From Vermamoeba vermiformis (taxonomy: Eukaryota): a stretch of 64,000 nt of DNA. The notes under the pieces were generated by a model. It searched no databases. It was not told the DNA's origin and was given only the letters and a program-made list of their open reading frames with translations. The translations under genes and the position numbers were made by a program. The stretch spans positions 1 through 64,000 of the forward strand of contig JBEWZL010000292.1 in NCBI GenBank assembly GCA_045837725.1. Reading direction: 5' to 3'. How positions within the stretch are numbered: position 1 is the first letter of the stretch; every line of letters starts with the position of its first letter. This document shows positions 8,703 through 63,300 of the stretch, piece by piece.

Positions 8703-11698
8703 ATGGATCTAACCAAGCTTAGTCCTCCGGCTGACGTGATCCGCTTAGTATTGAAATATTTGGAGGCAGACGTACTCTCCTGCGGTAAATATTAGCAATT
8801 ATTCTATATTTAGGCTGATAATACAAAACGAAACTGACAAATCGAGCGATTCAATTTCAGATCTTCAAAATTGAAATTTACGCAATTTTATTTATTACAT
8901 GCATCATGCATTTACATTATTTAGTTAGCATAAATCTCTATTATATGCGGATCTAATAGTAAAAATTCTAATTTTTCATCTGTAGTTGCCCAAGTTTGCA
9001 AAAAATGGACCGTCTATTCAGACAACTACGAGCTATGGCAAGCACTGTGTGAGCGCGATGGATTTGTAGACCCGGATTTGCATCACTCCATCGTCAATGC
9101 GGATGCGATCGACTGGCGCCAACTGTACATCGAAAAATATCAGTATATAGCGCACGATACCGAAGAAGCTATGTACGAAATGTTTGAAGAGCTTCAAAAC
9201 AAATATATTTTAAGCGAATCTCAGAACGAGCAGCTAGTGTTGCAATTGAATCAGCTGATCGGCGAGTTGACGGCAGTAAAGAAAGGCTACAGACACTTAG
9301 AAAAGAAGATGGTGCACTACAATACCCTTCAGTCCAAATATATCATATTGAAAGAGCGATATAAAGCATTGGAAAAGCGATTGCAAGAAGTTGAAGTCGG
9401 AGCCTCAATCCGCTCGCAACAGATGAGCGAATTAAAAGAACAAATGAACCTGAAGGAGAGGAAATATAAGAAATTAAAAGAGAAGTATTTAGAGAAGCGA
9501 CAAGAGCTCAAAAACAACGGCTTATCAAATTCATCTTCAACGAACAAAATATCCAGATCTATTTTAGACTCGAGCTCTGCAGTCGACGAGTCTAAATATA
9601 GAACACGTGGTCGTACAGGAACAGTTGGTAAGTAATAAACTTCCTTATTTGGTAATATTGTTACCTAACAACACGACAGGTTCACCGCTCGACAGCTCCA
9701 CAGCCCCAATCACAATCGAGGCCAATGGTCGTGTCAAAACTGTCAAAGTGCGCATGCCTGAATCACCGACACAAGGGGCAATGTTTGAGTCCGCTGACAA
9801 CACTGAAGGCAGTGTAAGTGCGGGTAGTTCATTGTGTTAGTGTCGTACTGACAGGTGTCACAGCTCGCCGATCACGTGCTCGACAGCGAAGAGGAGTTGA
9901 TGGAACAGATCAGCGGCAACAACGAAGACGAGTCCATGTCACGCAGGTAAGTGTCGTGCGCGCATTCGTTTGACACCTGTCACTCACCGTGTCATCAGTC
10001 GCTCGTATTCAATGTCAGACGCACACAGGCCCGCAGTGCCACTGCCATTCATCACACAGAGCCACAACAACAACACTAACGCGAGTGCGTCAAATGACTA
10101 CTCGGCCTCGCCAGCTAAAAGCAAAACCAATCGCGCGCGCAACAGTTCGGTGAATTCCGACGGCAGTGACGACAAAAAAGGTGCCTCAGCCACTCCACTC
10201 GCAGGCAGCACATCGCGCATCACAGTCATGAAATCTCCGCGCGGCGAAACAAATGCAAAGATACCGACTGACATTGCGGTGATGTCACAAGTTCCGATGC
10301 CAACAGCACTGTGGCACGTGGACTTTGAAGAGCTGCATTTCAGTGAAAAGATTGGCATGGGTGCTGCAGCGACAGTGTACCGCGGCACTTATCGCGATCA
10401 AACAGTGGCCATCAAAATCTTGCGCACCGGCGAGTCATTGACCGAAGAGAAAGATCTCGACGACTTCAGAAAAGAATTGGAGATTTTAAAAACACTGCGC
10501 GCAGCAAATATCGTCACATTTATCGGTGCCACACTCGAGCCGAGACTGTGCATGGTGCTCGAATACTGCTCGCGCGGCAGCCTTCACAGCTTTTTGAAAG
10601 ATGTGTCGAAAGACTTGACGTGGGAGCTGTTCTTCAAGTGGGCCACGCAGTGCATCAAAGGCGTGCAAGTGTTGCATCAATTCGAGCCTCAGATTGTGCA
10701 CCGCGATTTGAAGTACGACAAGATTGTTAATGTCAGCATTGCTATCTGGTACTAATATGACTTGCGTTATTTTAGGACTCCGAACTTGTTGATTGACAAT
10801 GACATGAACCTCAAAGTGTGCGACTTTGGTCTGTCTCGCTTCATCACTGGCGACAAGAACAACAAGACTACACTCGCCAAGTTCCGCGGCACCTATTGTT
10901 ACATGGCCACGGAGATCTACGCCAAAGAACAGTATTCGCCCAAGTCTGGTACGGCAATTACACGTGCTTAAAGTTACGTTTTCTGACTGTCAATTTAGAT
11001 ATTTACAGCCTGGGTGTCATCCTGTGGGAAATGATCCACAAATGTCTGATAGGCAGCTATGAAAAGGTAATATATCAGACCATTATCATAATTGACTATA
11101 TTATATGACCTTTTTTGTTAATTTGACTTTAAAAGTATAAATTATTATTTTTTTTTTCGTACCTGATTTTTTTTATTATTTTTGATGAATATAATAGATG
11201 AGAGTATTAATTAGAGAAGAATACGGTAGAGATTTTTTTGACAACTTTGAATGGATGCGAAACTCCGATCCAATAACTATTAATATTTTTCCTCGATCAT
11301 CGATAAATCTCTCTTTATCTATAATAATTCTATCCATATTTCCTATAATCTTTCTTATCTCATACCTTCTTAGACAGATCCGAAAAAAATCTATTTTTAT
11401 CCTCCTAATTAACCGCTAATATGAAAAGCCCTATGCGGAGTACAAATTCATTCGCTACGACATTCAAATCCCCGTGCAAGCAGCGACCAAAAACTTGCGA
11501 CCAACAATTCCAATCACTTGTCCTGAGATGATCTCGCAGGTGATTCGCGCTTGTTGGGACTCAGATCCAATGCGCAGACCTTCGAGCGGTATTTTACTGC
11601 AACGATTCGAACAGATCAAGAAAGAATATGAAAATAATGCGAAGAACTGGGATAGACTGCGCGAATTTGCAAAGAAAAAATACTCAGAAAAACTGTAA
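8703..11698 (+). CDS. F-box + coiled-coil + TKL-family protein kinase
   Basis: N-terminal LSPPADVIRLVLKYL..VAQVCKKW..ELWQALC (F-box); kinase motifs IGMGAAATVY, VAIK, HRDLK, DFG, GTYCYMATE, WDSDPMRRPS. Confidence 0.85.
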
Positions 11699-11788
11699 TA
11701 TTACCTCGCCCTTATGTACATAATTGTATTATAGACATTATTTATAAACAAATTCTACAACTACAAGAATTACATAACATAGAAGGTC

Positions 11789-14700
11789 TTATTTGCCTCC
11801 GTTGAACTTTTGAAGCATTTCTTTGCGCTCAGTGATCTTTTTGATGGCCTCGTCCAGTACTGCAATGTCAGTGACATTGGTCAGGTCAAACACTAATGGC
11901 TCGCGGGTCAGTGACTGTAACTCTCGTTGTCGCAGCAACTCTTTTGACACTTCAGTTGACGCGCGTGGTGATTTTGCGTTGGGCTTTTGTTCGTCAACAG
12001 TCATTGAGCGTGACGACTTGCTGCCACTGTAACTCGGTTTGACTTGTTTGAATGTGAATTCGGTGTTGGCCCGTGAAGGGGCGTCTGATCGTGCTGATTT
12101 AGAGCCGCTGCTGCTGATAGCCAGTTTTGGATCGGACATGTACGAGCGTGACAAACTGTCACTCGATGAGGACTCGTCGTCCACTTTGACACTCAACGAG
12201 GACAGTCTGAGTTCGAGTTTGTCGAAGGAGAATTCAGTGGCTGGTGAGGGTTCAACAGTGTCAAGTGGCACGTAACCATTGGGCACGACATTGCTGCCTG
12301 AGTCAGCGAGCACGAATTGTCGTGAACCACGTGGACTAGGCAACACCGACTTGCGACTGCTGGAACGACTGATTGCACCGTCGCCTGTTGGACTCAGTGG
12401 CGGACTGCTGGACTTGCGCATGGTGAGGGCCTTTTCAATCAGGTCTTTAATCATGCCCAGTCGGGGCACTGACATCTTGTTTCTGAAGGCTGGTGTCTCG
12501 CGCAGTGCTGCTCGCTCAGAATTGATTACTGCAGATCTGTTAGTGGTGAAATAATTATTAAGGAAAATACACATACACTTTAGAAGCAACCAGCGCTTGA
12601 ATTCAGGAGTATTTCCAAACACAGCTGGAGCAGGCAGTGAAGGAGGGTGTGGTGGCACAGTCTGTTTGTGCACGCACTCCACTTTGTAGCGCACACCAGG
12701 ACCTGTGTGCTTCAGTTTTTGCACAACGACGAAATTGTCTGGAATAAGATGTTAATGTCACTGCGGTGCTCGTGCTAATTATTGAACGTACGATTGAATT
12801 GTGAGTTGAAAATTGACGGATCAAACTTCTGATCGCCCTCTTTGAATATCAACATGACGACGTCATTGCCCAAGTGGCGTTTGCGGTCAATCTAAGTTCA
12901 ATGTTAGAATAAGGCAGGTATTAATATAACCGCTGCATACTCGTTGCGGGTCTTCAGCACGAGCAGGAATGAGTGGTGCTGCGTGGAACATGACCTCAGT
13001 GTCTTCAATCTCTGCGTACACACCCTTGCAGTCTGCGTGCGATGTTAGCATCGGTCTAGTAGTTATGTATATAAGTTGTCCGTACCTCCTTCAGTAGGCA
13101 GACCAGCAATGTATTTGGTCCAGCTCTTAATTTCCACTGTCTGACCCAAAAAGTCCATAAACTCTTGCAGATCCGCGCTGATCACATCTAAACAGCCGAG
13201 ATGTTAGCCGCCGTTGTAATAAAAACAGGATAATATATGACGTACCATTGCTATAATAATCATTTTCTTCAATCTGTCCAGCCTTGACATAGAGCAGGCC
13301 GAATTTATACTTCTTGAAATAACTGTTGTTTTCGTACTCCAACAGCGCGTCATTCATGTCTACGTCCAACTGATGCAGATAGGGTTATTATAAGCGGCAC
13401 TATAAAACGATCAACAAGTACCTTTTTGACGCCGTTGAACTCTTTGCCGAGTACTTTGGTAGTGATGTACTTCAACAACTCTTTTTCGTTGTCAATGTAA
13501 TATGGCACGACAATAGGCACTGTGTCGCGCGTGTGAAAGACGAGTGCTTTGTGCTCACTGGTGGGCAGCTTGGTGATGGCGATTAAGAAGGCTGTCTTCT
13601 CTTCTTCTTCGCCCGCATAGCCGTACAATTGATACTCTAATGCCAACATAAGTCGCTGTCACAATGATTGTTGACACGTGTCACACATACCTCGTGCGGC
13701 CATGAATGAGCGGAACAACAACGGCTTCTCGATCAACTTCATGGACTCGCTGCTCAGGCCTTGCGCGTTGCTGGACAGCTCGTACACATAGCCCTTGTCC
13801 AAGGACTCAGCGGCAATGCTACTGTCACGTGCTGGTTTGCCGTAGTTGTTGCCGTGCAGTTTGCGCCACAAGCCGAGTTCAGAGTGCATGGACCACATCT
13901 CTTCGGCATTGTTCAGCGCGTACTTCTCCATGGCCAATACGACACTATTTACAATTTCAATGGACTGATATATCGATTACATGCGGCACTTCAACTTACT
14001 CTTCATAATTCGCGTAGTCACCAGCGTACTTGGATGCGTGTTGATAAATAAATCCATTCTTCTCGCTGTAAATAAATAGACCACCCAGTTGACTGTGTGA
14101 TTGATGATTAATATCAATATCTCACTAAATACAAGTGTTGTGAACTTACAGCAAGTCACCCTGCGTCTGTCCTTGTCTGTAGCCTTTTTTGATGGCATTA
14201 GCTGCTGCGGCCAAACTTCTCAAGCCCAAAGCAGACTTGAAATCTGATTACGAGCGGTAAGATTAATAATGTAGCACTAAACATATTGATGTTAATACCT
14301 CGTCGGAGGTTGAGCAATTTGTAAATCTTGCGCAGCTGATCCACGTAGAGTTTGCCGGGGAAATTGAATTCAGACTTGAAGTTCTTCGCCATTGCTGGAG
14401 TGCCATTGCCAATAGCCACAATACGCACGCCACTAATATCATAAACAGTTAGAATTTCCAAATTAAGCAATTGTCCAAACTAAGCAATTATCAAATTAAT
14501 CGAATTAAATCGCACTTACAGCTCTTCAAGACGATCTTTAAAAGCTGCCAATTCACCGCACGCTTGTCGACACAACATGCTGCAATAAGACCGTTAGTAA
14601 GTCGAATGCTCGTAGATACAATTGAAAGATGACTCTTACCAGCCAAAGTGTCGCAGGAACAACAACATGGTGACTTGACCCGCCACGACCTCTTTCAAGG

Positions 14701-15816: not shown

Positions 15817-18064
15817 ATGAAAATTTATGAAATTGTAATTGCAATAATTTTTACTTGGGTTGCCTTGGGAAGTTGCGATCCAAACTATCAACTGACTTCA
15901 TCGCTTCCCAAATCCAGCACTCCACAAGCAGGTACACTTTACAAACATTATCTATTCGCACTTATGCACTTAAATTCAATCGCAACTTCGATCTACTCGA
16001 AAATATCTCCAGAAATAATCCTGACACTGAAAATAATTAATTTACTTTGACACAGCGTACCCTGACTGGGCTCATGACCATTGGGTGAGGATCATAATTA
16101 ATGGCGATGCTCTATTTTTTTTATTGACATGCCAATGATTTGTAGGTATGGCTCTCCAGCCCTGAAGCGAATCAAAACTCCATGCTGCAGCTGGTCAAGG
16201 ACTATCAACAGCACAATATTCCCGTAGGAGCGGTTGATCTTGATAGCATGTGGTCTACAGGTAACTTTGGGGACATCCGGAAGTTTCGCTCACCTCTTTA
16301 CAGGAGTCAACAACTTCAAGTGGAACACGAACAAGTATCCCAACTCTACGTGGATGATTGAACAATTTCACAGCATGGGCATTCGTGTCATACTTTGGGT
16401 CACGTCAATGATTGACAAGGACTCGGATAACTATCAGTACGCGTACGAACACCTTTATTTGCTGAACGATGGTACGACACTCGAATATGATACTATTATA
16501 CTGTATTTTAACGCATTTATTAGGCGAACTAATCAATTGGTGGCATGGTATTTATCCAGAGTTACATTTAATTCACAATGTACCTTTAATAACACATCAC
16601 TAGGAAAGGGTGCGCTATTCGACTACACCAATCCCAATGGTTTGAAATGGTGGCACTCGCAGCTTCAAGCAGTGCTCGATCAAGGCATTGATGGCTGGAA
16701 GTGCGACGGAACAGATCCGTTCATTTATGGCACGTGCTTGTTGCCGCATCAAACTGTTGCTAATGCATTCTTTAGAACTCATAGTGCCTATTGGATATGC
16801 GGGAATTGTAGACCCAAGAGACTACGCCAATCGATACTACAGGTGTGTATTTGGAACATTCCTCGAACTGTTGTTTGACACGTGTCACTTCAGAGATTTC
16901 TTGTACTACTCGCGCAAGACCAACCCTGATGCACTGATCATGTCACGCCCAGTGGATAGTTATGGTCCTATTTATTGGCAATTCTCACCGCGTGATGTTG
17001 TGTTGTCTGGCAAGTGACTCGTTACTAGCAGACTGTCCACTCCTAACCCATTGGTTCACAGGCTGGGTCGGAGATCAAGACCCCACTTTTGATGGCCTGC
17101 AACGAGCCCTCGAGAACTACTTCCACAGCGCATGGGACGGCTACGTCAACTTCGGCTCAGACATTGGTGGTTATCGCACTGGCAAAGGTGTGCTTGGCCG
17201 CACCAAAGAGCTGTTCATTCGCTGGGCTCAACTCGGTGCACTATCACCGCTGATGGAGAACGGTGGTAACAAAGAACATCGTCCTTGGATGTTCGATGAC
17301 GAGACACTGCAAATTTACCGCAACTTTGTCAACCTCCACATGTCACTCAAGCCGTACTTCTTGACTGTTGGCAGCAATGCACTCGCGAGCAACTACTCAG
17401 CCATTACACCCATGTCTAAGTACACCTTTGTAGTCACCAACTGGAACTATTTGCTTGGTCCTGATGTAAGTTCGGACGTATACTTTATACAAATATTCAT
17501 TGCAACTGCAGGTGTTCGTCGCACCTATTGTCAAAAACAGTACCGAGCGCTCAGTGGAATTCCCTACGGGCTCAGACTGGGCTGATTGGTGGAATTCATC
17601 GCTCATCTATCGCGGAGGATCCACGGCACAGCTGACAGTGCCGCTTGCTTCGTATCCTGTGTTCAAACGTGTTGGCTCGTTGATTCCAATGAACTTCCCT
17701 GACACTGGTCTCACTGTAGTCACTACACCGCACATGTACGTCAATATGCTCGATGACAATCAGACTTAACCTGTTCATTCTTAGCGGCATGAACGCTCAG
17801 ACTTCTATTCGCTTTTGGAACGCACCTTCACGCGATGTCGCAATGACTTGGGCCTCGGAGTCCTCGCTGCGCATTGCCACGAGTCCAGGCCACACGCACA
17901 TTGCAGTCTTGTTGCGCGGCGTGTACTGTCCTCGTCGCGTTGAGGCTCTTGAAGGTCGCGTCAAGTGGAACTGCCGCAACAACAATGAAGTACTCGTGCA
18001 AATGGACGAAAACGCCTCGTTGATTGAAGTAGGCGGCCTGTTGCAGAATACAGTTTACTTTTAA
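15817..18064 (+). CDS. Glycoside hydrolase family 31 with signal peptide
   Basis: AVDLDSMW, GIDGWKCDG (nucleophile Asp), WVGDQ (acid/base Asp), GSDIGGY, ELFIRWAQLGA, VAPI. Confidence 0.9.
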
Positions 18065-19577: not shown

Positions 19578-22271
19578 ATGTTGAGGGCTGCAATTAGCGC
19601 TTTGAAGCAAACAAGCAAAGCGCAGCTTGGATCGCGATCTGTGCTTGGATCGGTCTTCGCAACCAAGAAGAATGTGGCGAATACTACGATACTGTTTAAC
19701 CAAAAACCTCTTATAGATACATCATGCGCTTTTTATGCAGTCAAGAGAAGAAAGTTACGAACAAAAGTAACAAAAGAAAAAGAGTTAAAACAGGAAAAAG
19801 TCAAAGCTGCAGCACCAATACCGCAAAAAAATGAACCGAAAGTTAAAGATGCATCGTATTATTTTGAAAAAGCCAAGGATTTAGGTAAAAAAATTAGAAA
19901 AAATAGTTGGACTATTTTATTAAATAATTTGCTTTGGATCCAGAGAGCAAAGAAAAATACTCTGAAGCGTTGAAAGCCTATGAAAAAGCTGATAGCTTAG
20001 AGCCCGAAAACCCATTAATTCAATTCGGTCTCGGTTCAGTATATTTGCATATGAATCAAGTTGACAAAGCGATCGAGAAGTTGAAGCTCACGATCCGCCT
20101 CGCAGAAATGGCGAAGAGGCCTGATGAGCATCTATTACAAACAGTCTCTAGGGCTTATAACAACTTAGCCATTATCCGGTTCGAACAAGGCAAACTAGAG
20201 CTCGCCAAGAAAAATTTCAAAAAGGCAACTATCCACCAAACTATTTGGCAACAATTAAGCGTTATTCTAATACACCCTATAGGCCATCGTTGTAGACCAC
20301 AAAATACCCGATGTGTACGTCAATTTAGGAGTGATTTGCAACCGTCAGAAGAAATACTCAGAGTGAGTTGTGACGACTATTCAATCACCATTTATTAACA
20401 CGATGCAGAGCTCTGGAACACTTCAAACAAGGACTGAAAACATTTAAAATGCTCGATGACCAAGGTGAGATCGAAGAGGGCCCAGAAGAAGAGCGAGGTA
20501 CGTGACGGGTGTCATTCTTAGACTAGACGTATCAGTGCTGACACTACTGCAGAGAGAATATCGTATTTGTATCAGCAGATGGCTATTTCATATGGATCGC
20601 TCGGCAAGCACAACAAGGCCTACGCTGCGCTGAAGAAGGCGTATTTGCTCAACTCTGAGGACTTGACTGTCACGCGCATGTTGGCCAAGCTGAGTGAAGA
20701 GCGCGAGGAGTTTGTGGATGCAGTGCAGTACTACGAGCGCATATTAGAGTAAGTGACAGACACGTGATGCAGGTCAGTAATTGACACGTGTCATTGAATA
20801 GGCTGGAAGAAGGGGACAAAGAAGCACACGCTCAGCTCGGTACATTGTACTCGCGCGAGGATTTGCCGCAGATTTACAACGTGTACAAGGCTGTCGAGCA
20901 CTTAGAGACGGTACTACTGTCCTCTATATAACACACTGTTATCTGTTGTGCTAATTGGTCCGCAGGCTTTTGAATTGGACCCCACACGATACGACATTGC
21001 CATGGCCCTGGGAATTATTCACTTCAACAACACTGGTGACACCGAGAAGGTACCTAGTGAATTCATATACTTTCATATATCGGATTCTCATTCAACCTTT
21101 GCAGGCAGCAGCTTATTTGATGGAAGTGTTGAAAGAAGAAGGAAATGAAAATCCACAACGCCGCTACATTGCGCACCTTACTTTAGCGAACATTGCGCTA
21201 GTCACAAACTCTGAATTTAATGTGAGTGCAATGAAAGTGTCACTGTCTGTACTAACGCCGTGCAGTCACTATTGGTGCAAGCTGATAAAGCGCGCTACGC
21301 CGTGAAACACTTCATTAAAGCAGCCGAGATATCACCCAATCCAGCCCTGTACGAGAACATTGCTCAGTGTTACTTGAAGGCCGGTCAGGTACGCAACGTA
21401 TTTCGTAATGCGCATCAACAACTTACTGAACCATAACAGCTCGATGAAGCAACAAAAGCACTGGAGAAGTCCATTGAATTGAACAATCGACGCGCACAAC
21501 CAATCAGCTGGCTCGCCCTGCTCTATTTGAAGCAAGAACAATTCGATCGAGCACGAACACTTGCAGCTCAAGCACTGGAACTGAGTCAGTACAATCGACT
21601 GGCGAACTACGTGTAAGTTCTTAATACTACCACTAAGAGCCTTATTAACAGCTTCACAGCATGGGCAAAGTCGCATATGTTGCGAAAGATGTCAACACAG
21701 CCGTGACACACATGACCGCTGCACTGAGCGAGACTGAATCAGAGCAAGAACCCACCTACATTGACGTGTTGTAAGTGCGACGCAGTATGACCAGCACCAC
21801 TAATGAACAACGTTATCAGCCAAACTGATCCTGCTCTCGTGCGCGATGCCCTGCGCGTCCTCTCTGAGTCACTGCAAGCACGAGGGGACTATGAAGAGGC
21901 GCTCAATGTCACTACACAAGCGCTCGCGAACAATGGCGAGGACTTTGAACTCTCATTCCGCGCAGGCACCTTGTACAGCAGCAAGGGCGAGTTCCGTACG
22001 TAACATTCACATTCACTTGTGCGTTGCTAATTCCACTTTTGTCACAGAAAAAGCAGCAGTTATGTTCCGCCGTGCTTCTGTAGTCGATCCGAACTCGATT
22101 GAAGCACCACTCCGACTGGCCGAAACACTGATGAAGCTGGATGACTACGGCCAAGCACTCGTGTACATCAACAAAGCAATCAACAACGCCGAGAAATATC
22201 AGAACGCAACACTGCCGACATTGATTGCCATTCGTCAAGCTGTGTCAGTGCTTGCAGGTCACAATAAATAA
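19578..22271 (+). CDS. TPR-repeat protein, probable mitochondrial presequence
   Basis: MLRAAISALKQTSKAQLGSRS start; many TPR helices (GLGSVYLHMNQVDKAIEKL, AYNNLAIIRFEQGKLELA). Confidence 0.75.
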
Positions 22272-22384: not shown

Positions 22385-24630
22385 TCACCGCTCATTGTCC
22401 TTGCCGCTGTTGGTGTTCGCGTCACTCAGCACCTCGTCCACCTTGCGCACCTTGCGCTGTGGCTCTTCGTCATGCGCATCACTCTCGCGCTTTCTCTTGC
22501 GCTCAGCATCAATTTCAATGACCTCGGAGGACTCTGACGGGCCCTTAGACTCGTTCACTACGCCTTCACTCGCTGGCTCCTTGCGCAGTCGTGCTTTGTG
22601 AATGAAGCTGTTGTGCCTGCTGACCACTGGCGAATGACTCGGTGTGTTGTGCTCCGTGTCAAGATCTTTGCAGCTCTTGTCTTTGACACGATAGAATTCA
22701 ACATCGGCCAGGGGTACTGGTGCCACGAGGGGCTGGTCAGATGTCAACACAATGACAGGTGTCACTTCTGGACCCTTTTGTGCGGCTGTGTTTTGTTCAT
22801 GAATGATGCTGATGACACAGTCAGTCACGTGAACACTCATTCAGGGCACGACTTACCTGCGCATCTTCTCTTTCAACAGATTCAACAGCTGCAAATTCGG
22901 GCCCTTGTCTTTGTGCAGCTCTTTCTGCGTCTCGTAATAGTCCAACAACTCGCCCCACGTGTTGATGTCGCTGTGCAGTTGCTTCAACAGCAGTTGTGCG
23001 GCACGTTGTTTGGCCTCTTTCTTCGTCTTGCCAGTGCCCTCAGCCTGCAGCTGATCGAGCGTGGCTGTCACTGAAAATCTATTTTTAGTCTCGCTGGTGC
23101 CGATCTCCTCCGAGTTGTAGTGCACGTAGCTGCCCTCGCGATTGCAGTACTCTTGCAGCACTTGCACGGGGGTCTTGGCGCTCGTGCCATCGAGGTTCAT
23201 AATCTTCTCGTCGTCAATGGGCAAGTGGCGTGTCTGCAGTGCCGTTAATAAGACGAGTGTCACGCATGTAGCGCAGTCCTCACCTCGTTGAGATCATCTT
23301 TGAGCGCGACTTCCAAATTGACATTTTTGAGCAGCAAGTCACGTGGGTACTGCACAGTGTTAGCGAATGACACTCACACGACACGCGTCATTACCTGACC
23401 GGGACAGAGGTGCTCCAAGGACTCGAGGGCAGCGAGTTGTTTGGAGGTCTTTTTGTTGCTGAAACTGCCGCGGCCAATCACCTCGTCGTCGAGCATCACT
23501 TCGGTCACAAAGGGCGCCTTGCTGTCCTCTGTGTGACACGTGTCAAAATCATGCACGCGCGAGCAGCAGACCTACCTTGAATCGTGACGCGGTAATTGGG
23601 CGTCTTTTTGATGATGTTGAGGCAGTACTCTTGCAGGAAGGAGATCGGTGTCTTGCCCACGCCCGACAAGTCCTCCGCACTCCGCTTCTTCACGCCGCGC
23701 TTCGTGCCTGTCACTCGCTGGTCAGGGACTGTGTTTGACACGTGTCACAGTTACTGTCACTCACCGTACTCTGCAGTCGTCTTTCGCTTGCGTCGCTTCT
23801 CCTTGGACACAATCAGACTCACCAGCTCCAATGCGCGGGCTTTGATGGCGTGTCCAGACTCCGCCACATCCCCCTCACCCTCTGCGCGCTCACTCTCAGG
23901 CAGTGCCTCGTGTTCCGTGTCCTCTGCGGGCTCAATGTCGCCGTCACCTTCAATCAGCTCACCTTCTTCGAGCTCTTCACCGCCCTGATCCAGCGTGGTG
24001 CCTGCAGGAGTGATGAGTGCGTGCAGTGTGCGTCATATGCGCGACATTACCTTCGTCCAAGTCATCGACTGACTCCAGCACCGCGCTCTGTTCTTCAGCT
24101 GCGGGTTCCAGACCAGATCCGCTGTGGAGTGCGTGGCTGGGCAGTTCTTCCTCGAGCGATGCTTCGTCGCGAGTAGTCTTCGCAGGGTCATCGATAGCAT
24201 TGTCCTCTAGCACGATAGCGAATGAGGACAATAAGGGCGCGTGTTCCTAATCATGAATCGGTCAGAAATTGTGACTGCGGATCGAACGTCAACGCAAAAT
24301 TAAAATTAAAAATAAATTATTATTTGTCACTGCATATAATAAATTTCGTATACATGATGCGGTAGCACCACATTAAAATTGATGATTGAATTATTCAAGC
24401 GCATCTAACTCCTGACTTGCCTCCACTTTGAACTTGCGGACATAAGGACGAGTCCAGCAGACAGTGCCGCTCTCAGTGTGGTAGTAGAATGGTAGACCAT
24501 TGTTGTGGCGCATCTCTGTCCACCCTGCAGGCAAGGCCTCTCTGCGCGGACGAGATCTTCGTTTCTTCTCTTTTCTGCTCGGAGCATCTGCGCTGATGAC
24601 AGCAGCACTAGTTGCAGAAGGCTCGCTCAT
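22385..24630 (-). CDS. DGCR8: DGCR8/Pasha-like protein (WW domain + two dsRBDs + conserved C-terminal helix)
   Basis: LPAGWTEMRHNNGLPFYYHTESGTVCWTRPY; GKTPISFLQEY..GRGSFSNKKTSKQLAA; KTPVQVLQEY..AKQRAAQLLLKQLHSDINTWGELLDYY; collinear with the animal DGCR8 sequence as I recall it. Confidence 0.8.
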
Positions 24631-24832: not shown

Positions 24833-26899
24833 ATGCAAAATAGGACGGTTGCAACGACGTGGATCAAGCCCACGCAGCACGGGCAACCTCCAAAACCACG
24901 GTGCTCGCATGCTAGCACAGTAGTAGACAACAAACTATATATCAATGGTGGCTGGGGTGGTGGCGACAGATTCTTCAACGATATTCATATTTTTCAAGTT
25001 GGTAAGTCTTCATTCCTGCCCTCGCGTTAATTTCAATTTAATTCTGCTACATTATGCTTGAAAATACATACAATAATTATTAATATGCTTATGTGTGCTT
25101 TATTTGACCGATAAATTACGCCAAAACTCGTAACTAAAAATAACTCGATCCCAATACTGCTTCACACGGTCCTAAAATACACTCCCCATATATATGATGC
25201 ATATCACGACTACACGCGGCACTATTGTTGTTGGTAGCAGATCTAATGATATGCTGCAGACACAGGGGTGTGGAGTCAGCCCATCACCACGGGCACATCC
25301 AAAGCACGCGCAGGTCACTCGCTCGTGCCCATCGGCAACAAACTATATGCATTCGGAGGCTCGGACGGCAAGCACTTCTGCAATGACTTGCAAGTGCTGG
25401 ATCTAGGTGCGTGACACTTGTTCGAGTAACACAGCACTAACAGCGCGCAGAGACCATGGCCTGGAGCACACCACTCACCACTGGACCCGTGCCTGACCCG
25501 CGCTCGCGACACACCTGCACCGCACTGCACACGCGACTCGTGTTCATTGGGGGCGGCGATCAGTCGCGGCTGTTCAACGACGTGCACCTCTACGACAGCG
25601 AGACGCGCGAGTGGTCCCTGGTGCGCACCAAGGGCAAGGCACCGAGTGGGCGCTGGGGTCACTCCACCACCCTCGTCGACGCGAACAAGTTGTTTGTGTT
25701 CGGCGGACACGATGGCAAAGTGCGCTTGAACGACGTGTTCATCTTGCATCTCGGTGCGTATCTCCGCCCTGCCAAATATAGCAACTAACAGCACGTGACA
25801 GACACGATGACGTGGAGTCAGCCCGGCAAGAAGAAGAAGCGGCGCAACAGTTTGGGCAGCAGCGGCACTGTGACCTCGCCCGTGGAGGACACGACACATG
25901 TCAAACAGCCACCGCCACCACGGTACGTAGCACGTGATCACGTGACACACACACGTGTACTGACCACTAGTGCAGCGCGGGCCACACGATGAACATGATT
26001 GGTCGCAAGCTGATCATCTACGGCGGCGGTGATGGCAAGTCGCTGAATGACATGCACTACCTCAATGTGGACACCTTTCAGTGGTTTGAAATGGAGAGTG
26101 GCAATGTGCCAGAGCGATGTGCGCACACTGCTGACAACGCGGCCAACAACAGACTCGTCGTGTTTGGGGGCTCGAACGGCATCAAGACCTTCAACGACAT
26201 TTACGTGGTAACGATTGGTGCGTGACTGCTGGCACTGCTGGCACGTGACTGACTTCCTAATTAGGCAAACACAAACTGCGGAAAAATGGACGAAGAGCGT
26301 CACTGACCAAATCCGATCAGCCACTGAATCTCTCGGGCGAGATGAACAACACCAATGAAGTGACACCTGTCACTGAGCCACCTCCACCGCCCCCGCGTCC
26401 CTTGCCCCTCACGCTGGACTCCCCCGACAGCGAACAGAGTCACAAGCACACGGTGAGCTCACAGCGCGAGAAAGAGCTGTACGAGTGGCTGAGTGCGCAG
26501 GGACTGATCAAGTACTTCACACTCTTCTTCCGCGAAGAGCTCTGGCTCGATGTCGTGCCGCTGTTGACAGATGACATGTTGACGCAGCTCGGTGTCACTG
26601 ACTTCCGCGACCGACTGACACTGTTGCGACACATTGACACACTGCGACAAGTGTCAAACTCTAACTCGCACGAGAGTCGTGTTGACAGCTCAGTCTTGGA
26701 TGACATGTTGACACGTGTTGAACAACTGACACAAATGATGACCGATCACGTGACACTGTTGAAGACTGTCCCTTATCACGTGACACCTGTCAACAACAAT
26801 CACGTGGCTACTGTGAATGGACACACCAATCACGTGCCTGAAAAAGCGCATCGCGTCAACAGCTTTGATCAGTGGCCCACGTACACACCAAAGAGTTGA
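24833..26899 (+). CDS. Kelch-repeat protein with C-terminal SAM domain
   Basis: Repeated R..H..(F/Y)GG..ND kelch units; ELYEWLSAQGLIKYFTLFFREEL..LTDDMLTQLGV..DRLTLL (SAM). Confidence 0.85.
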
Positions 26900-26978
26900 C
26901 ACGTGTCAAACTGCTACTTGTACATAGACCCGTGTAAATATATCTGTAAATAGCGTACTTCCAGTCTTTTAGTTCTAT

Positions 26979-28401
26979 TCACAATTTCTTCGCGCGCTTT
27001 TTCTTCTCGGTCTTCTTTTTGACAGGTTTCTTGTTGACACGTGTCACCGATGATGCACTACGTTTGACACGCTCAAAGTCCTCGGAGGTGAGCTGAGCAC
27101 GCGATGCCACGCTGAGATCAGGCGCGAGATTGAGCTGTGCGAGTGTGTGCTCCATGTGCGCGGGCAGTGCGGCAGTGAAGTGCAGCATGGCACCTGTGAC
27201 TGGGTGTGTGAAGCACAACTCGCGTGCGTGCAGGTGTAGCTTTGACACGAGACTGTGTTCTTTCATGACACGTGTCACTGGTGCTGGCAGTCGGTCAGGG
27301 CTGTATCGTGCATCGCCAAATATGGCACAGTGGAGCACTGCAGCACAGTGCACGCGCAGTTGATGTGTGCGACCAGTGAACGGCCGCAGTGCCACGAGTG
27401 ACATGTGTCGCGCAGTGGTCAGCACGTCGTACTGTGTAGTGGCTTGTTTGACACCTGTCACTTGCGAGTCTGCGGGCACGACTCGGTCACTCAGTCGCAG
27501 CAAAGGTTTGTCAATGACACCTGTCATCTGCCTGTCAGTCAGTTAGCGCCGTTCTGCACCGAGAGCAGTGACGTACTTGGGCTGACCAATCAGCACGGCC
27601 CAGTACAGCCGCATCAGTTTGTGTTCAGACCACGTCGCGGCGAGTTGTTGGGCCACGCGACGACTGCGCGCCAACACCAGCACACCACTCGCGTGTTGAT
27701 CCTAAGCACCGCATCAGTACATGTTCATATAGCACATGCACACCTACCAATCGATGCACCAGGCGCGGAGTTGTTCCGTCGAATGCGAGTGCGGACAAAT
27801 AGCTCGCGAGGGAGTGCGTCAATTTGCTGCCGCCCTGCACAGAGAGACCCGGGGGCTTGTTGAGCACTATGATGTGTTCGTCGCGATACAGCACCCAGTC
27901 TCGTACGCGCGACACGACTGCGGCACTGAGCTCTGTCTCGCGCTGTGATTGGTCAGTACAAGCGAGGTCGGATCTGACTTACCGTGGGCTTAGCGACCTC
28001 GCTCTGTTGGAAATATGAAGGGAAGTGAATATATTGACCCTCATGTACGCGATTAGAGGACTCAATTCGATGTTTGACGCGGATCTTCGTCGTGTCAGAA
28101 ACAAAAATCTGTTACAAAATTCAACAATTTAGTCATACGATTCTCTGCATTGTATAATATCAACAGTGCATGTAGCTATTAATCTAAGAATTCTTGAAAT
28201 TGTTCCAGGCGCTACTCGAGCTCTTACCTTGCGCTTACGCAGCAGTTTCTGCACGAGTGAGTGCGGTACACGCGGGAAATGCAGTGCCAGCCAGCGATCA
28301 ATGCGCATGCCACTCTCATCACCTGCCACTCGAACACTGCTCGACTTGGCGGGGGCTTGCACCGTCAACCCGCGTACGAAGATACGTGTAAGCGAGGTCA
28401 T
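26979..28401 (-). CDS. RluA/C/D-family pseudouridine synthase with S4 domain
   Basis: GMRIDRWL (S4), LNKPPGLSVQGG, LVHRLD (catalytic Asp at exon join), TGRTHQLRVH, LHLHA. Confidence 0.9.
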
Positions 28402-40986: not shown

Positions 40987-41045
40987 TGACACGTGTCATG
41001 CAGTCACCCCTGTAAATAAATCACCTTTAAATAGCGCGTGCCAGT

Positions 41046-42542: not shown

Positions 42543-43763
42543 ATGAGCAACGGTTGGCACGTAGAGCGATTGAGCGAGCGCGTGTGGAAAGCAGTGGAAT
42601 CAGATCCGTACGGTCAATATCCCTTCGTGTACTTTGTGCTTGGCTGGGACAAGATTGTAGTGATCGACACTGGTACTGGTGTGCATGACACACACGCACT
42701 GATGCTCTCAATCCCTGAGCTCAAGCAAGCAAATCTGCCTTTCTTGGTAGTGCTCACTCACATCCACTTTGATCACGTTGGTGGCGTCAAACATTTCAAG
42801 AATAAGCCTGGTAAAAATATAGCAGCCCTAATATCATTGCACATCAAATCAATTTCAATTTCAATTTTGAAGTTCAAATCTGCACCTGTTACAAAGACTC
42901 ATCTCTCGCACCAGGCAGTCTCGGCGTGTATATGAGTGGTGCTGACAAGACCTTCAGCGGCAACATTGAGATCAACAGCTTAGCGCTCGCACACAATGGC
43001 GCTAAGATTGAGCCCTTCACGGTCGATCGCTGGCTGAGTGATGGTGACGTCATAGCACTCGATCACGTGACTGACCACGTGACTGACCACGTGCTCAATG
43101 TGCTTGCCATCCCTGGTCACACGCCTGACTCGATTGCCCTCTATTTTGCAGCTGACAAGCGCATGTTCATTGGTGACATCTTGTGTAGGTCTCAGAGTGG
43201 TTATTTCCTAATTAGGCAATGACTGATCACGTGCTGTAGATCCCTTCACTGCGATACACTTGGACTGCATTGGCAGCAATGTCAACAGCTACGTGCAGTC
43301 CATTGACAAGTTGATCAGCTTCACGCGTGACAGGTGTCAAACATCGACCTCCACCACCAGCGCTGCACCAATCACCAACACCGCCAACACTGCAAAGATC
43401 GATCAGTTCATCTCGCTCGTAGGTCTCTCTCGTCCCGCGCCGTTCAATGTCGCAGCACTGCTGGCCCTGGTCGATGACTCGGTCGAGAATGCTGTCGCGC
43501 TCTACTTTGACGCCGGTGGTGACGTCACTGGTCTCGTCGGAGCTGCGCCGAGTGACGTGCCAGCCACGAGCAGTGACGTCATGCTGTCGTGCGGTCACGT
43601 GGAGGCTAATTTGAGCGTGCAATCTTTGCACCAATTGAAGACAGCGCTCGAATTAATCCGCGCTGGCGTGGTGCCACCAAGTCACGTGGACGGCGAATAT
43701 GGCGAGTATACCGTGGAGAACTTCACCATCATGCTGCCCATGAAACACGCGCACCAGCACTAA
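42543..43763 (+). CDS. Metallo-beta-lactamase-fold hydrolase with inserted UBA-like segment
   Basis: IDTG, THIHFDHVGG, PGHTPDS, FIGD, CGH; KIDQFISLVG..ALLALVDDSVENAVALYFD is UBA-like. Confidence 0.8.
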
Positions 43764-43853: not shown

Positions 43854-46389
<2,536 letters not shown>

Positions 46390-46570: not shown

Positions 46571-48459
46571 TTAAAATACAAGTCCTGATCTTAAATAGTC
46601 AATGAATTTAACAATGTCGTCCTTGTGGATCTGCACTGTCTGTGTATTGAAGCTGTGATAAGTAGCACGTGATCGCGTACGTTTCAAAGCTTTGTCAAAG
46701 TACGATGAAAAATTGCTGTTGCAATGGAAGGTTAGCAAGTCTACACAACGACAGTTGCGATACGTACTTGGGCACATTAGGCTGCGCAGAGTGTTGTCCA
46801 TTGAGTCCCACAATTAAATACCCCTCGTGTTGTCTGTCGTGCTCGTTCAGTGCGCCCACGAGCAGCGGCTTCACTTTCTTGGACTTGCCCATTTCCTGTG
46901 CAGCCACGTCAATACACGCTCAGTTCCATTCACCGTAGTGTACATACGATCAGTGTGTCCAACAAGAAGTGCGCCAGTTTAGAGAGGGCGAGTGGATGCA
47001 CAAAGTACTTGAGCTCGGGACTCTCGCTCAACAAGCAGTACCTGAACGGCCCTGACTGCACAATGTCTTTCTTCTCGATGATGGTGGTCACTTGTCGCAC
47101 GATGGCCTGTTGCAGCTGAATGGCTTGTTGAATGCCTTGCTGCAGCAGCTTGATGTTTTTGCTGTCAAACGGTCAGTACGTGTGACATTTGACACTGACA
47201 CGTGTCATTCACTCACCTCGATAGCGCGTCATAGGCCACCCAAAAATTGCGTTTCAACTGCTCGTGATAATGCGAGGCAGCAGCCGCCAAGTCCGCATCG
47301 TTGTTGACATCTTGATGCACGGGCAGATCCAACAGCGCGGTCACTGCCCACACCGTGTCCGCTGCCGAGACTACCATATCGCAGTGCTGCTTCTTGATGA
47401 AGGACGGATAGGTGAGCTGATCGAGATGAAAGTCCTTGCCGTGCTCAGTGAGCTTGTCGTGCAGCTGATCTTTGAATGTCTTATTCATCGTCAAATAGGA
47501 CATGCGACACTGTTCGAGCGGCACTCCCATCTTGGCCAGCAACATCTCCAAGCGACGGCGACCATTCGACTGCCACACACCGAGTCGCACCGCCACGTAC
47601 TTGCTGTGGTACATGCTGTCGTAGAGGTTCCAGTGACGGTACAAGAAGAACTTGTACTCTTCTGAGACCAAGATCCGGTGTTGATCCGCGAGCTGTTCAG
47701 TAGCCGCTTCATCGTCTTGAATATTGCGATTGAGTACTTCAGTCTTGAAGTGCACCACGTCATTGATGTAGCGCTCTTCGTCAATCTTCTGATGCAAGAA
47801 CTGATCTGTCAGACCCACCAGCGCGTACCACAGCAGTTCATTGTTGGCTTTGTTGAGCTGCGAGGCCAGTGCATATGTTAAGCCCGCGACTGTAGAGCCA
47901 TAGTATGCAGCATTGGTATTCATCAACTCCTCGCTGACGTCTTCGCTCTCTTCGTACACAACACCGTCGTCAAACAACAAGATCTGCTGCTTGTTGGCAA
48001 CATTTTCTGGGTGATAAGGACGATGACTATCGATGACATATAATGTTACTTTAGGCAACTTCTCCAGCTCGAATAGCTCGTCGAGATTGATGCCGCCGCC
48101 ACAATTCAGCATGACGATCGCGCGGAGCTAAACTGAGTTAGTTGCAATCAATTAACGCTTAAACACGTACCATGCTATTGTTTTTAATTAATTCTTGATA
48201 ACCACGTTCTAAATCTTCAAGACCATTAACACAAACAACGTTGTAGGAGATGAAGTCAGATTGAAACAACGACTGAACATATTAGTTAATTTCATATGAT
48301 ACTATTATATATATGGGTGATTATTACCGTTAAAATTTTACAAGCACAGACTGCATCACAATCGTAATCAACAAATACAACAACTGAAGATCCGAATTTT
48401 GCAACATCTTCTTTTACGAGCTGGTAGGCTCTGTTGTATTGTTCAATGGGTACTTTCAT
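46571..48459 (-). CDS. CDC45: Cell division control protein 45
   Basis: DCDAVCACKIL, NCGG, IDSHRP, LYRHWNLYDSM, LLAKMGVPL, NFWVAYDALS. Confidence 0.95.
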
Positions 48460-57031: not shown

Positions 57032-57178
57032 AAAGCAAACCCTAACCAAAACAGAAATCACACAGCCCTTTCTACCTGCAGCATCATTGATATTCAGCAG
57101 CAATCTAGGCTTGATTCACAAAGTGCGGTCACTCCCGCTGGTACACACTATTCAACACGTTACAGCTGAACCCCAAGT

Positions 57179-60054: not shown

Positions 60055-60305
60055 GGTTGTGAATTATCAATAACAGTCCCAAGCTTTGGTGCAGTTAAAT
60101 AGGTGAAGTTGAATAGAAAAGATTTTTGTTCCCCTTGCCCGCTGAAATTTGTTGCGCAACAAAAATTGGCCCGCAGAAAATAGCTGTGAATTCTGTACCT
60201 GCCGCGCACTCATCATTTGTAACGCTGTTTGTAAATTGAACGACACATTAATTTGTAGTCGTATGTAATATATACCTGTTAAATACTTGTACAGTCCGAT
60301 TATTC

Positions 60306-63300
60306 ATGTTCTTTCGAGATTCAACGCGGAAACAAGGCAGTTTGCCGTTCGGTGCTAAAAAAGAATCCGCTGCCGATATCAGTACGTACTGCAATTAGTT
60401 GCATCGATGCAACTAATGGGGATCTTATTACTTTTTACGTCGCAAAATTTTTCTTTATTTTAAAATAATAGCAATTAATTCCTGTTAATATAGTTGCTAA
60501 GAGCAAAAGAGAGCGCGAAGAACGAGCAAAGAAAAAAAAAGAAGAAGAGTCCGCGCTTAAAATTCAAGTAAGTCCTAGATCCAGATCCGAACACCACCTC
60601 ACCACTGTCACGCAGGCTGCATGTCGCAGTTATGTAGCGCGCAAGAGACAGCAAGCAGAGTGGCTGCAGCACTACGAAGCAGACCAGCAGTCCCTCGACA
60701 TTGTAGCGCGGATGCGCTTGTTTCTAGCCCTGCGCAGCCCAGCCCGCCAGTCACTGCTCGCAACGTGTGTCGCGACCTTGCAGCAGCAGTGGAGTGCCTA
60801 TCAGACTGCACTGCACGACTCACCTGCCACGCGCGTGTATCAAGCACGACACCTGTCAAAAGTGATACTCGACGCACTCAAGTCACGTGACTCACTGCCC
60901 AATCACGTGATCGGTCAGTTGATAGCCCTGGTAGATCAATTGGTGCGACAGGAACAGGAGCGAGTGGCGCGGTGGTTGATCGATCGCGCTGAATTATTCC
61001 GCACCATTCATGAATTGTGCGATCGATACAGCGATCACGTGACAGCTCTGATCGATCTCGCAGCGCACAGCTACTTGGTCAGTGCCAGTGACGTGGCAGT
61101 GAGTGCGCAACTGTGGTGGCACTTGCTCAGCTCCGAGCACGTGAATGACACGCACGTGACACATCTCACCGCCGCTGTCACTCACGCCCTCAGCGTACTC
61201 ACACGTGATCAGTCACGTGGTGTAGATTTCGTGACATTATTCCGCACTCACAAGCTCGATTTGGACACACGCGGACTAAGGAATGCGGCGCGCAACGGAG
61301 CAATTATTTTACGAGCCCTGGTCGAGGACACCGAACACGAGTCACGTGATCAGTTCGCGCACTGGATGGCCGTTATCGAGCAATGTGCCGCACACGCCCA
61401 GCACCACGCAGCAGTGGCACAGCGCGCAACACTAGTGCGTGCCGTCGACGAGGAGGACGATGCAATGGAGATTGAATTCACTGAACCACAAGTGCCACCA
61501 CGTGACTACCTGACTGAACAGACTGCAGCACAGATCTGCACTGCGCTGCTGACGGAGCGCGCACGTGATCATTGCACCGTGCTGGCCGTGCTCGCTCGTA
61601 CGGTGAGTGCAGCGACACTGGACTGGCACTTTGCCACACTGAGCAGATTGGTGGCACATCTGTTGACACACGGCACAGCACACGACACGCGACGAGTGTG
61701 CGCGGAGATCTCCGAGGCCTACACGAGACAGTGGCCCGCGCTGCGTCAGAGCGATGAATTTCGCCGTCTGTTGCGCGACTTGACCGGCCAGGCCGTGGAA
61801 CACACTGCCACGAGCACGAGTGTCAGCACGGAGCTCTTGCTGCACACGTGGCTCACACTCACTGTCACGCACGCACTGCTCGCACGTGTCGATCGATCGG
61901 GTCTGAGTGTAGATATTCCGCACCCACTGCTGACCATCACACGCGAGCTTTGCGCCAGTTTTCAGGTAAAGACGAGTTATTCCGCGAGTGCCACGACTGA
62001 CACGTGACAGGACAAGCTAGTGCGCCTGTACTGGCGCGAAGACAGTGCGGAGAGTGCGGCCTTTGTGCTGCTGCGGCGCGGTGTGACACAATTGCTGAGT
62101 CTGGCGCACGAGTTGAGGTGAGTGCCACTACTGAAGTCTAAATATAGCGCAGTGACTAACCGCCGTGTCCCGCAGTGCCGTGCACGCAGGAGTGTGGCCC
62201 AAGCACAGTGCGCTGAGTGCTGCACAGGTGCAAGTGCTGCTCGAGGCCTATCCCAGCAGCTTCAAGCGCGTCATGCGTCACGCACCCTTCTTGCTCGACA
62301 CCAAAGAGAAGGTCGTGCTGTTGCAGCAGTGGATCCGTGCCGACAAGGAGGTGTATCAGCCAGTGGAGCAGGGTCAGATCTCGCACATTCAAATACGTCG
62401 CACGCACCTGTTGCAAGATGTCTACCTCAAACTCGCACCGCCTGGCACCTCGTTGAAGCGCACGGTGAAGATCGAGTTCATCAATCAAGCGGGACTGCAA
62501 GAGGCTGGCATTGACGGCGGAGGATTGTTCCGCGAGCTCGTCAACGAGTACGGTGATTGACACGTGTCACGCGTTCATGAATCAAACTAACCCACGTGTG
62601 GTGCAGGGTGATCAAGACCGCATTCTCGCCGCAGTACGGACTGTTCAAAGCCACGGAACAACAGCAGCTCTATCCCAATCCTGCCTCCGCGCTCTTGGTC
62701 GGTACGTTGCAGCACTCTGTTTGACACCTGTCACTCGCTCACCGTCGCGACAGAGAATGACACGGACAAGTTCCGCTTCTTGGGTCGATTGCTCGGCAAA
62801 TGCATTTACGAGCTGTGTCTCGTGGACTTGCCGTTCACTGAATTCTTTTTGGCGCAGTTGTTGGATCGACCTGTGGCGAGTAAGTATACCTCGCGTATAC
62901 CGTTCAGTGAACTGACACTCCCCTGCAGTGCATCAGCTGAAGAGTCTCGATGCCGCGCTGTACAAAGGACTGCTCTCGCTGCGCAGCTACACGGGTGACT
63001 TCGAGGACTTGGAGCTGACCTTCAGCGTGCACGAGGACGCGCGTGACATTGAGACCGCTGCTGTCAATTTGCCACGCCCCCTGACTGCTGGCAGAGTCGT
63101 GGAACTCATCGACCAGGGCAACAACGTCAAAGTGACACGTGACAATGTCGAAGAGTACATCGCCCTCGTTGCCAAATATAGAATGCAGACGCAAATCTCC
63201 GCGCAATCTCGCGCGTTCAAAGAAGGGCTGTGCGAGGTGATCGATCGCGAGTGGCTGGCACTGCTCGGCTGGACGGAGAGTGAATTCGCGCTGCTGATCA

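Follow-up and report, generated by a model that had tools for sequence, protein, structure and literature searches.

The window examined here is the whole 64,000-nucleotide (nt) stretch at positions 1 to 64,000 of contig JBEWZL010000292.1 from the amoeba Vermamoeba vermiformis. It contains genes for a GH31 hydrolase, MCM, CDC45, NPR2, translin, a pseudouridine synthase, a tRNA m1G methyltransferase, a HECT ligase, and a kinase, as well as a transposon-like stretch (48600-58100) with ORFs that weakly match a Tet/JBP oxygenase domain (51836-52765) and DUF7869 (54434-55710). We identified 15 exact copies of a 12-bp palindrome, TGACACGTGTCA, in this window; all 15 start positions listed for the word in a first-pass annotation were correct, and there were none elsewhere. 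The annotation had also reported about 11 one-mismatch copies, and 11 were found, including all 8 positions that it listed; of these 11, 6 were of the variant TGACACCTGTCA and 5 of the variant TGACAGGTGTCA.

The family was defined as TGACA-SS-TGTCA, written TGACASSTGTCA, and every occurrence of TGACA-NN-TGTCA in the window was listed. This gave 27 sites, of which 15 had the centre CG, 11 had CC or GG, and a single one, at 35419, had GC (TGACAGCTGTCA), while no site had A or T in the centre. Not one copy of TGACACGTGTCA was obtained in any of 100 dinucleotide-preserving shuffles, and the analytic Markov expectation for the exact word in the whole window ranged from 0.004 (order 0) to 0.34 (order 5). 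In 200 Markov simulations, for which the models were trained on the 44.7 kb containing every site, family members averaged 0.035 at order 1, 0.045 at order 3, 0.66 at order 5, and 2.5 at order 6 (with a maximum of 7), as compared to the 27 sites observed, and the exact word was expected 0.41 times (order 5) or 1.36 times (order 6) in the same 44.7 kb as compared to 15. Models trained on the introns yielded 0 to 2.2 sites versus the 17 observed there. A low-order Markov model of genic sequence, the explanation that the first-pass annotation had set against its own claim, thus fails, since models trained on the very same DNA produce so few sites. The enrichment is real and not compositional. No other 12-letter palindrome reached 3 copies in the window. 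That the counts reflect the codon usage and biased oligonucleotide composition of genes could be argued from the abundance of the CACGTG core (113 copies versus an order-4 expectation of 86, largely explained by its pentamers), but given the simulated numbers this is excluded within the window.

The unit of the enrichment is the whole dyad. Among the 113 copies of CACGTG, the flanking triplet was TCA 38 times, and 30 of these formed 15 symmetric pairs. From totals of 70 TGACAC and 46 GTGTCA, about 49 and about 26 were located outside the palindromes, versus order-3 expectations of 39 and 34. Isolated half-sites are therefore not enriched, and the 2 halves are co-dependent. Over the 10 outer letters, 27 sequences were perfect, 6 had one mismatch, and 24 had two. 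There were no copies in the window with CpG-to-TpG decay at the centre, such as a dying repeat would show, and the frequent variants were C/G swaps at the 2 central letters. The dyad symmetry was confined to 12 bp, with unrelated flanking sequences between copies, and a repeat finder detected no family extending past the 12-mer except at chance-level identity.

The annotation had noted an E-box core, and here the data pointed elsewhere. As in the E-box and G-box sites of bHLH and bZIP proteins, CACGTG is contained in 15 of the 27 sites and is itself enriched in the same genes. However, the other 12 sites, with a CC, GG, or GC centre, have CACCTG, CAGGTG, or CAGCTG, and the outer TGA and TCA are kept. 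Because the core varies while the outer letters stay, the invariant part is the flanks, TGACA..TGTCA, and not the E-box; and because 12 sites have no central CpG, modification of that CpG cannot be the core function. The sites also differ from E-boxes and G-boxes in being intragenic rather than upstream; ABRE and G-box elements are known from plants.

To describe the location of the sites, genes were delineated with a simple home-made model of codon bias and splice sites (dynamic programming), with 3 manual additions and 4 corrections, which replaced an earlier intron finder based on regular expressions and the bridging of open reading frames (ORFs) that had returned 692 mostly false candidates. 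When compared to 13 RNA joints, the model matched 8 within 3 nt, had the right donor and the wrong acceptor in 3, and missed 2. Since 15 of 68 RNA splice joints were available for comparison, 13 of the motif-intron assignments listed below are those of the gene model. The 27 sites are the following:

9849..9860, TGACAGGTGTCA: predicted + strand intron 9814-9863, 3 nt from its 3' end, CTGAC at branch-point distance
9971..9982, TGACACCTGTCA: predicted + strand intron 9947-9998, 24 nt past the donor, separate CTCAC branch site downstream
13672..13683, TGACACGTGTCA: predicted - strand intron 13637-13690, 7 nt past the donor
16876..16887, TGACACGTGTCA: intron of the GH31 gene (+ strand), donor 16843, acceptor ambiguous (16893 or 16952)
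20782..20793, TGACACGTGTCA: TPR gene, predicted + strand intron 20749-20801, 8 nt from its 3' end
22753..22764, TGACAGGTGTCA: coding, ORF 22388-22840 (- strand), encodes VTPV, within a contiguous RNA contig
23534..23545, TGACACGTGTCA: predicted - strand intron 23529-23575, 5 nt from its 3' end, TTGAC at branch-point distance
23736..23747, TGACACGTGTCA: predicted - strand intron (23708 or 23729)-23764, acceptor ambiguous
26361..26372, TGACACCTGTCA: coding, ORF 26261-26899 (+ strand, Kelch/SAM gene), encodes VTPV
26781..26792, TGACACCTGTCA: coding, same Kelch/SAM ORF 26261-26899 (+ strand), encodes VTPV
26897..26908, TGACACGTGTCA: its own TGA is the stop codon of ORF 26261-26899
27035..27046, TGACACGTGTCA: coding, ORF 26982-27542 (- strand, pseudouridine synthase), encodes VTRV
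27266..27277, TGACACGTGTCA: ORF 26982-27542 (- strand), encodes VTRV, in the contiguous RNA contig 27053-27530
27449..27460, TGACACCTGTCA on the + strand: ORF 26982-27542 (- strand), encodes VTGV, ungapped versus solved RluA-family homologues
27515..27526, TGACACCTGTCA on the + strand: ORF 26982-27542 (- strand), encodes MTGV
32570..32581, TGACACGTGTCA: tRNA m1G methyltransferase gene, predicted + strand intron 32557-32599, 13 nt past the donor
35278..35289, TGACACGTGTCA: translin gene, - strand intron 35258-35304, spliced contigs in RNA runs X1 and X2
35389..35400, TGACAGGTGTCA on the + strand (CC in the sense direction): RNA-confirmed - strand intron 35384-35439, 5 nt from its 3' end, CTGAC at branch distance
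35419..35430, TGACAGCTGTCA: the same RNA-confirmed - strand intron 35384-35439, 9 nt past the donor
35528..35539, TGACACGTGTCA: RNA-confirmed - strand intron at about 35520-35569, 7 nt from its 3' end, CTGAC at branch distance
39975..39986, TGACACGTGTCA: putative 32-nt + strand intron 39960-39991, between 2 NPR2-homologous exons
40987..40998, TGACACGTGTCA: immediately follows TAG, the stop codon of the NPR2 ORF 39964-40986
43328..43339, TGACAGGTGTCA: coding, ORF 43227-43760 (+ strand), the sole exon copy in another frame (RDRCQ)
44294..44305, TGACAGGTGTCA on the + strand (CC in the sense direction): MCM gene, predicted - strand intron 44289-44345, 5 nt from its 3' end
47196..47207, TGACACGTGTCA: CDC45 gene, predicted - strand intron 47162-47216, 9 nt past the donor
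62558..62569, TGACACGTGTCA: HECT ligase gene, predicted + strand intron 62548-62606, 10 nt past the donor
62722..62733, TGACACCTGTCA: HECT ligase gene, the next predicted + strand intron, 62702-62753

The model contained 138 introns, of which 125 were located outside the transposon stretch (8,427 nt, median length 53 nt). There were 17 sites in 16 host introns (2.02 per kb) and 8 in coding exons (0.23 per kb), while the rest, 10,650 nt of intergenic and untranslated DNA, held 2 (0.19 per kb). The latter 2 both abut stop codons, at 26899 and 40986, which agrees with the earlier description of 2 copies at stop codons; a TGTAAATA-like word was also noted 14 to 28 nt after both of them. The word was carried by 14 of the 27 host gene models, and only 16 of the 125 host introns contained it. 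In total, 21 of the 27 sites were located in the second half of their gene, and the first quarter contained none (per-gene Wilcoxon p = 0.02, n = 14), so that the annotation's "short introns or 3' gene halves" was a fair summary under our gene model. As judged by gene order, 15 sites were no more than about 600 nt away from convergent gene ends, including 7 in 1.2 kb around 26899|26979 and 4 beside 34911|35082, the latter within 260 nt at 35278-35539. In the convergent pairs 26899-26979 and 40986-41046, the stop codons are only about 60 to 80 nt apart, and the 3' ends must therefore overlap or abut. No sites were detected at 1-9848 or at 47208-62557, and the 9.5-kb region surrounding the Tet/JBP and DUF7869 ORFs was devoid of them, as the annotation had stated for the transposon island.

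The motif introns were richer in GC than the other introns, even with the word excluded (0.49 versus 0.41, p = 0.0009). Introns that were AT-rich and free of the word were found in the genes at 1-9,800, in a strongly expressed gene at 28.5-29.5 kb, and in a calponin-homology gene. The gene at 28500-29500 (- strand) had a contig depth of about 400 to 500, as compared to 5 to 20 in its neighbours, a 115-nt AT-rich intron, and no Pfam matches. The density of CACGTG followed the same pattern as the word, with 4.15 per kb in introns, 1.75 per kb in exons, and 0.85 per kb in intergenic DNA; it reached 7 to 11 per kb in some ORFs with weak codon bias and was zero in the MCM and CDC45 exons. The CACGTG-dense ORFs were 41539-42246 (- strand, 11.3 per kb), 60472-62004 (+ strand, 7.8 per kb), and 26261-26896 (+ strand, 7.9 per kb), the first 2 of which had weak codon bias, and CACGTG occurred in 2 or all 3 frames in each of the 3.

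The 8 exon copies were set in frame. Contiguous RNA contigs span 4 of them (22753, 27266, 27449, and 27515), and 7 of the 8 encode the peptide [V/M]-T-[R/P/G]-V, which corresponds to the frame that avoids both Cys and stop. In the pseudouridine synthase, the VTGV copy at 27449 was ungapped in 2 of 4 printed homologue alignments (5uba_A, 6yxx_EC), and the VTRV copy at 27266 was ungapped in 1 of 4 (11wx_A), with the other 3 gapped around it. The alignments contained no clean 4-residue insertion, and a 12-base insertion was rejected accordingly; the copies in this gene have thus arisen by substitution rather than insertion. RNA contigs from other strains, compared for the exon copies, showed that the copy at 22753 was altered in run X2, and there were no changes at 27266, 27449, or 27515 among 40 of 248 strain differences.

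The local clusters, the higher GC content of the motif introns, and the enrichment of CACGTG in the same regions are all features that could be produced by a neutral process, in which biased repair, short-patch gene conversion, or another copying process writes the word into transcribed DNA of higher GC content and the cell gains nothing from it. We consider this explanation improbable. One-off copies are nearly absent (6 versus 27 perfect), there is no decay by transitions at the central CpG, and the exon copies required amino acid changes in one frame. Moreover, an analogous explanation for the bacterial palindrome HIP1 has been tested and rejected in favour of selection, according to the cited part of that study (PMC5861425).

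The introns in this window are short, with 116 of 138 being no longer than 75 nt, and have GTRAGT or GTACGT donors, no visible pyrimidine tract, and CTNAY 10 to 18 nt from the acceptor. The donor consensus GTNAGT and the branch consensus ACTNAC are reverse complements of each other, so that many of these introns look intron-like on both strands. A branch site (CTGAC, CTAAC, CTAAT, and similar) was found in 92 introns, and in nearly all of these the A was located 10 to 18 nt from the 3' splice site. Three motif introns with 4 sites were confirmed by spliced contigs from the 2 public RNA runs (35258-35304, 35384-35439, and about 35520-35569). In 7 to 9 of the 17 intronic sites, the word is located 3 to 8 nt from the intron end and its TGAC is thereby placed 12 to 17 nt from the 3' splice site, where CTNAY branch sites lie; at least 6 of these had no other branch candidate at a suitable distance. 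Since 2 of the branch-distance copies are in RNA-confirmed introns, the word is at the least compatible with use as a branch site. The remaining 8 intronic copies are located 7 to 24 nt past the donor and have a separate branch site downstream.

These observations raise the question of whether the word acts in RNA, where it could be an extended branch site or an enhancer of splicing in ultra-short introns, or could work through pairing between copies in the pre-mRNA. The intron density of 2.0 per kb versus 0.19 per kb in intergenic DNA of equal GC content, with 17 of the 27 sites in introns, speaks for such a role, as do the copies with YTGAC at branch distance. Any 2 copies are mutually complementary, so that a pair could join splice sites or loop out the exon between 2 motif introns. 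There were 5 pairs of adjacent introns that both had the word, separated by exons of 79 to 153 nt, as compared to about 1.6 pairs expected by our own estimate, so that copies may pair with each other in RNA. The intron with 2 copies was the only outlier in folding (z = -1.95).

However, reverse-complement symmetry is meaningless for a protein on single-stranded RNA, and the asymmetric variants had no preference for the sense strand (CC in 7 cases, GG in 4). When the 16 motif introns were folded and compared to shuffles, the z scores averaged about -0.05 (range -1.95 to +1.45), and 15 of the 16 were no more stable than their shuffles, which ruled out an RNA hairpin. Furthermore, there are 8 copies in exons, 4 of which are within contiguous RNA contigs, and 2 at stop codons; the word is present in only 16 of 125 host introns; and 8 donor-side copies have a branch site of their own downstream. 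We therefore judge an element acting at the RNA level to be rather unlikely, although the splicing element suggested in the first-pass annotation retains the intron excess and the branch-distance copies in its favour, and the exon and stop-codon copies, the small share of introns, and the ordinary folding to its detriment. A role in creating stop codons upon intron retention was also rejected, as TGA was in frame at 7 of 16 scored intron sites versus one-third expected, which was not significant. Rfam gave no matches in the window.

We searched for pairs of family members 10 to 40 nt apart in other sequences. A metagenome scan returned at least 117 loci, versus about 1 expected by chance according to our own rough estimate, and the same scan of viral contigs returned 9. 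The metagenome loci were mostly unrelated to the pattern seen here and consisted of tandem arrays, ATTGACACGTGTCAAT units in what appeared by eye to be transposon ends, and AT-rich arrays. Nine loci (L024, L044, L051, L058, L070, L094, L109, L113, and L116) represented a repeated element with ATTGACACGTGTCAAT-like units about 44 nt apart. By their layout, these arrays resemble the subterminal binding-site arrays of a DNA transposon, and if they are indeed transposon binding sites, proteins that read a CG-centred 12-mer would exist in other organisms. Only 2 small fragments resembled the usage in the window: L052, with a 63-nt GT..AG intron in which TGACAGGTGTCA is followed by TGACACGTGTCA 3 nt before the AG, and L095, with 3 mixed copies, 2 of which are located just past GTGCGT. 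BLAST searches of the metagenome loci, including L052 and L095, against the window showed no similarity.

Mobile elements offer a further explanation, namely that a tiny inverted-repeat transposon or introner gave rise to these introns and left the word as its core or footprint. The concentration in introns, the seemingly mirrored (d5, d3) positions, which are about (30-40, 3-8) for some copies and (7-10, 34-37) for others, and the presence of the same 12-mer in metagenome repeat arrays judged by eye to be transposon subterminal repeats (for example, in JAAUXT contigs) are compatible with this idea. As in the introners and hairpin-forming repeated introns of Amoebophrya, Micromonas, and Aureococcus, a palindromic sequence is found within many short protist introns (PMC7789003). 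The introners of Amoebophrya have terminal inverted repeats of 8 to 20 nt and direct repeats at their borders, and described introners show similarity over the whole intron in addition to the direct and inverted terminal repeats, as far as the cited passages go (PMC7789003). The amoeba introns, in contrast, share 12 letters only, have GT..AG splice sites and unremarkable folds, and the word is also found in exons. Whole-element similarity, terminal repeats, and target-site duplications, by which introners and miniature inverted-repeat elements are recognised, were not seen in the motif introns: there was no similarity past the 12 letters beyond chance level, no target-site duplication was visible in the flanks, the exon copies had no change in length versus homologues, and the word was perfectly kept while its flanks were unrelated. 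A relic of a mobile element is thus very unlikely.

As a tentative explanation, possible but short of probable, we propose that the palindrome is a maintained intragenic word of duplex DNA that is read by a dimeric protein with TALE-type half-sites, where we infer the reader, the selection, and the task. The dyad symmetry, the co-dependent halves, and the lack of a strand bias fit recognition of the duplex by a dimeric protein, and a permissive 2-base centre between co-dependent halves is the signature of such a protein on duplex DNA. To this extent, the protein binding suggested in the first-pass annotation appears compatible with the sequence pattern. In the TALE literature, as cited in part here, TGACAGCTGTCA is the canonical TGIF1 site, in which 2 homeodomains occupy opposite faces of the palindrome (PMC6158717), and TGACAGGTGTCA is given as the MEIS3 consensus (PMC5449588). 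The amoeba sites share with these dimer sites the half-sites TGACA and TGTCA and a 2-base S-S centre in 27 of 27 cases, and 2 of the 3 centre types found here correspond to these published sites. The difference is that the published sites, in the passages cited, are regulatory sites of animal transcription factors, whereas the amoeba word is mostly CG-centred, occurs about once per 2 kb of genic DNA, and is missing from promoters.

Several observations weigh against a word of duplex DNA read in this manner. The CG-centred form, which is the commonest here, did not appear as a TALE site in the consulted parts of the TALE literature. The placement typical of a TALE-type regulon was not seen, in that there was no site in promoters or 5' intergenic DNA in the window under our gene model. 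The roughly 10-fold excess in introns over intergenic DNA of equal GC content (0.40 versus 0.41, binomial p = 7e-5) and the absence from promoters are not predicted by plain DNA binding, and the 7 to 9 intronic sites that place TGAC at branch distance have been described above. The genes that carry the word have no common functional theme, and the evidence comes from a single 64-kb window in which the class sizes depend on a crude gene model. The preference for gene interiors and introns would be explained under the TALE-type proposal if the task of the word were tied to transcription through the gene.

Under this proposal, TGACA-SS-TGTCA would be a maintained and highly iterated 12-bp word of the genome, recognised as a duplex by a 2-fold symmetric, sequence-specific protein with the half-sites of TALE-class homeodomain dimers. 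The word would be required in the transcribed interior of only some host genes, namely the GC-richer ones, which may also be the more modestly expressed ones, as judged from the one stretch with RNA data, and with a bias toward the 3' part and convergent gene ends. It would sit where the gene interior tolerates 12 fixed letters, that is, in introns of about 50 nt, at tolerant codons (V-T-(R/P/G)-V), or at the stop codon, and its YTGAC could double as the branch site in such introns. The gene-body task would be tied to transcription and might concern the kinetics of elongation or splicing, the handling of 3' ends or convergent genes, or a chromatin mark that separates host genes from transposons.

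In bacteria, fixed DNA words can be repeated thousands of times per genome, as exemplified by HIP1, uptake sequences, and Chi. The literature searched contained no report of a comparable iterated word inside eukaryotic genes. Searches with the exact 12-mer retrieved 2 unrelated virology papers only; the 10-mer core was found in 23 papers, by title in plant-promoter, primer, and bacterial contexts and in no work on amoebae; and nothing relevant was retrieved on introns with such a motif in amoebae or other protists. HIP1 (GCGATCGC) is an iterated palindrome of cyanobacteria that is 15- to 300-fold in excess and conserved within and between ORFs (PMC5861425, PMC4390886), and in the part of the literature cited here a function as a peptide, RNA, expression, or promoter motif does not account for it, and it is argued to be kept by selection (PMC5861425). 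Like HIP1 as described in these sources, the amoeba word is a short perfect palindrome in many-fold excess inside genes, shapes the coding sequence, and has no agreed function. According to the same sources, HIP1 belongs to bacteria, has a length of 8 bp, and is linked to orphan methyltransferases whose target is its core, whereas the amoeba word is eukaryotic, 12 bp long, has an S-S centre with no obligatory CpG, is about 10-fold enriched in spliceosomal introns, and does not occur in the transposon stretch.

A bolder version of the proposal, which we regard as unlikely, is that the amoeba has a eukaryotic counterpart of the bacterial iterated palindromes: a genome-wide, TALE-read 12-bp word in gene interiors, chiefly introns, which would serve as a mark of "self" or of gene bodies that transposons lack and would link the recognition of DNA to decisions on transcription, splicing, or silencing. 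In germline genes of C. elegans, periodic A/T clusters in intronic DNA license expression against silencing. These clusters are likewise a DNA feature located mostly in the introns of host genes, lacking from transposons and acting at the level of chromatin; the difference is that they are a periodic composition signal and not a fixed word. Should the word prove to be genome-wide and selected, it would offer a simple experimental handle, with one oligonucleotide for a pull-down and one small edit per intron, by which to ask how a cell marks or handles its own gene bodies, why introns persist, and what sets host genes apart from transposons. If it is a neutral by-product, it would imply an unusually precise process of writing sequence in a eukaryote.

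A few minor observations were made in the same window. The observed/expected ratio of CpG was 1.04 to 1.08 in the host parts and 0.80 in the transposon-like stretch 48600-58100. Among the 4-letter palindromes at 9800-48600, CCGG was scarce (23 versus 47 expected), and GATC and GTAC were about 1.5-fold in excess. A CDC45 exon was compared to the longer database proteins and had a top identity of 39%, the best matches being a metagenome protein and those of Physarum, Stygamoeba, and Dictyostelium; by this comparison the sequence is amoebozoan-like, and no close relative is present in that protein set.

At 27446, 32588, and 39991, contigs of runs X1 and X2 stopped matching the window 2 to 7 nt past the word in the sense direction and continued for at least 62 to 255 letters that were absent from the window; over 20 kb there were 6 distinct loose ends, and these accounted for 3 of them. 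Possible origins are contigs of other motif loci that were placed through a short shared seed, chimeras, or real alternative junctions. In runs X21 and X23, which are more distant, raw RNA reads skipped the 48 nt at 26216-26263, with ends reported as non-canonical, and from the sequence this skip reads as an ordinary GTGCGT...TTAG intron shifted by alignment ambiguity.

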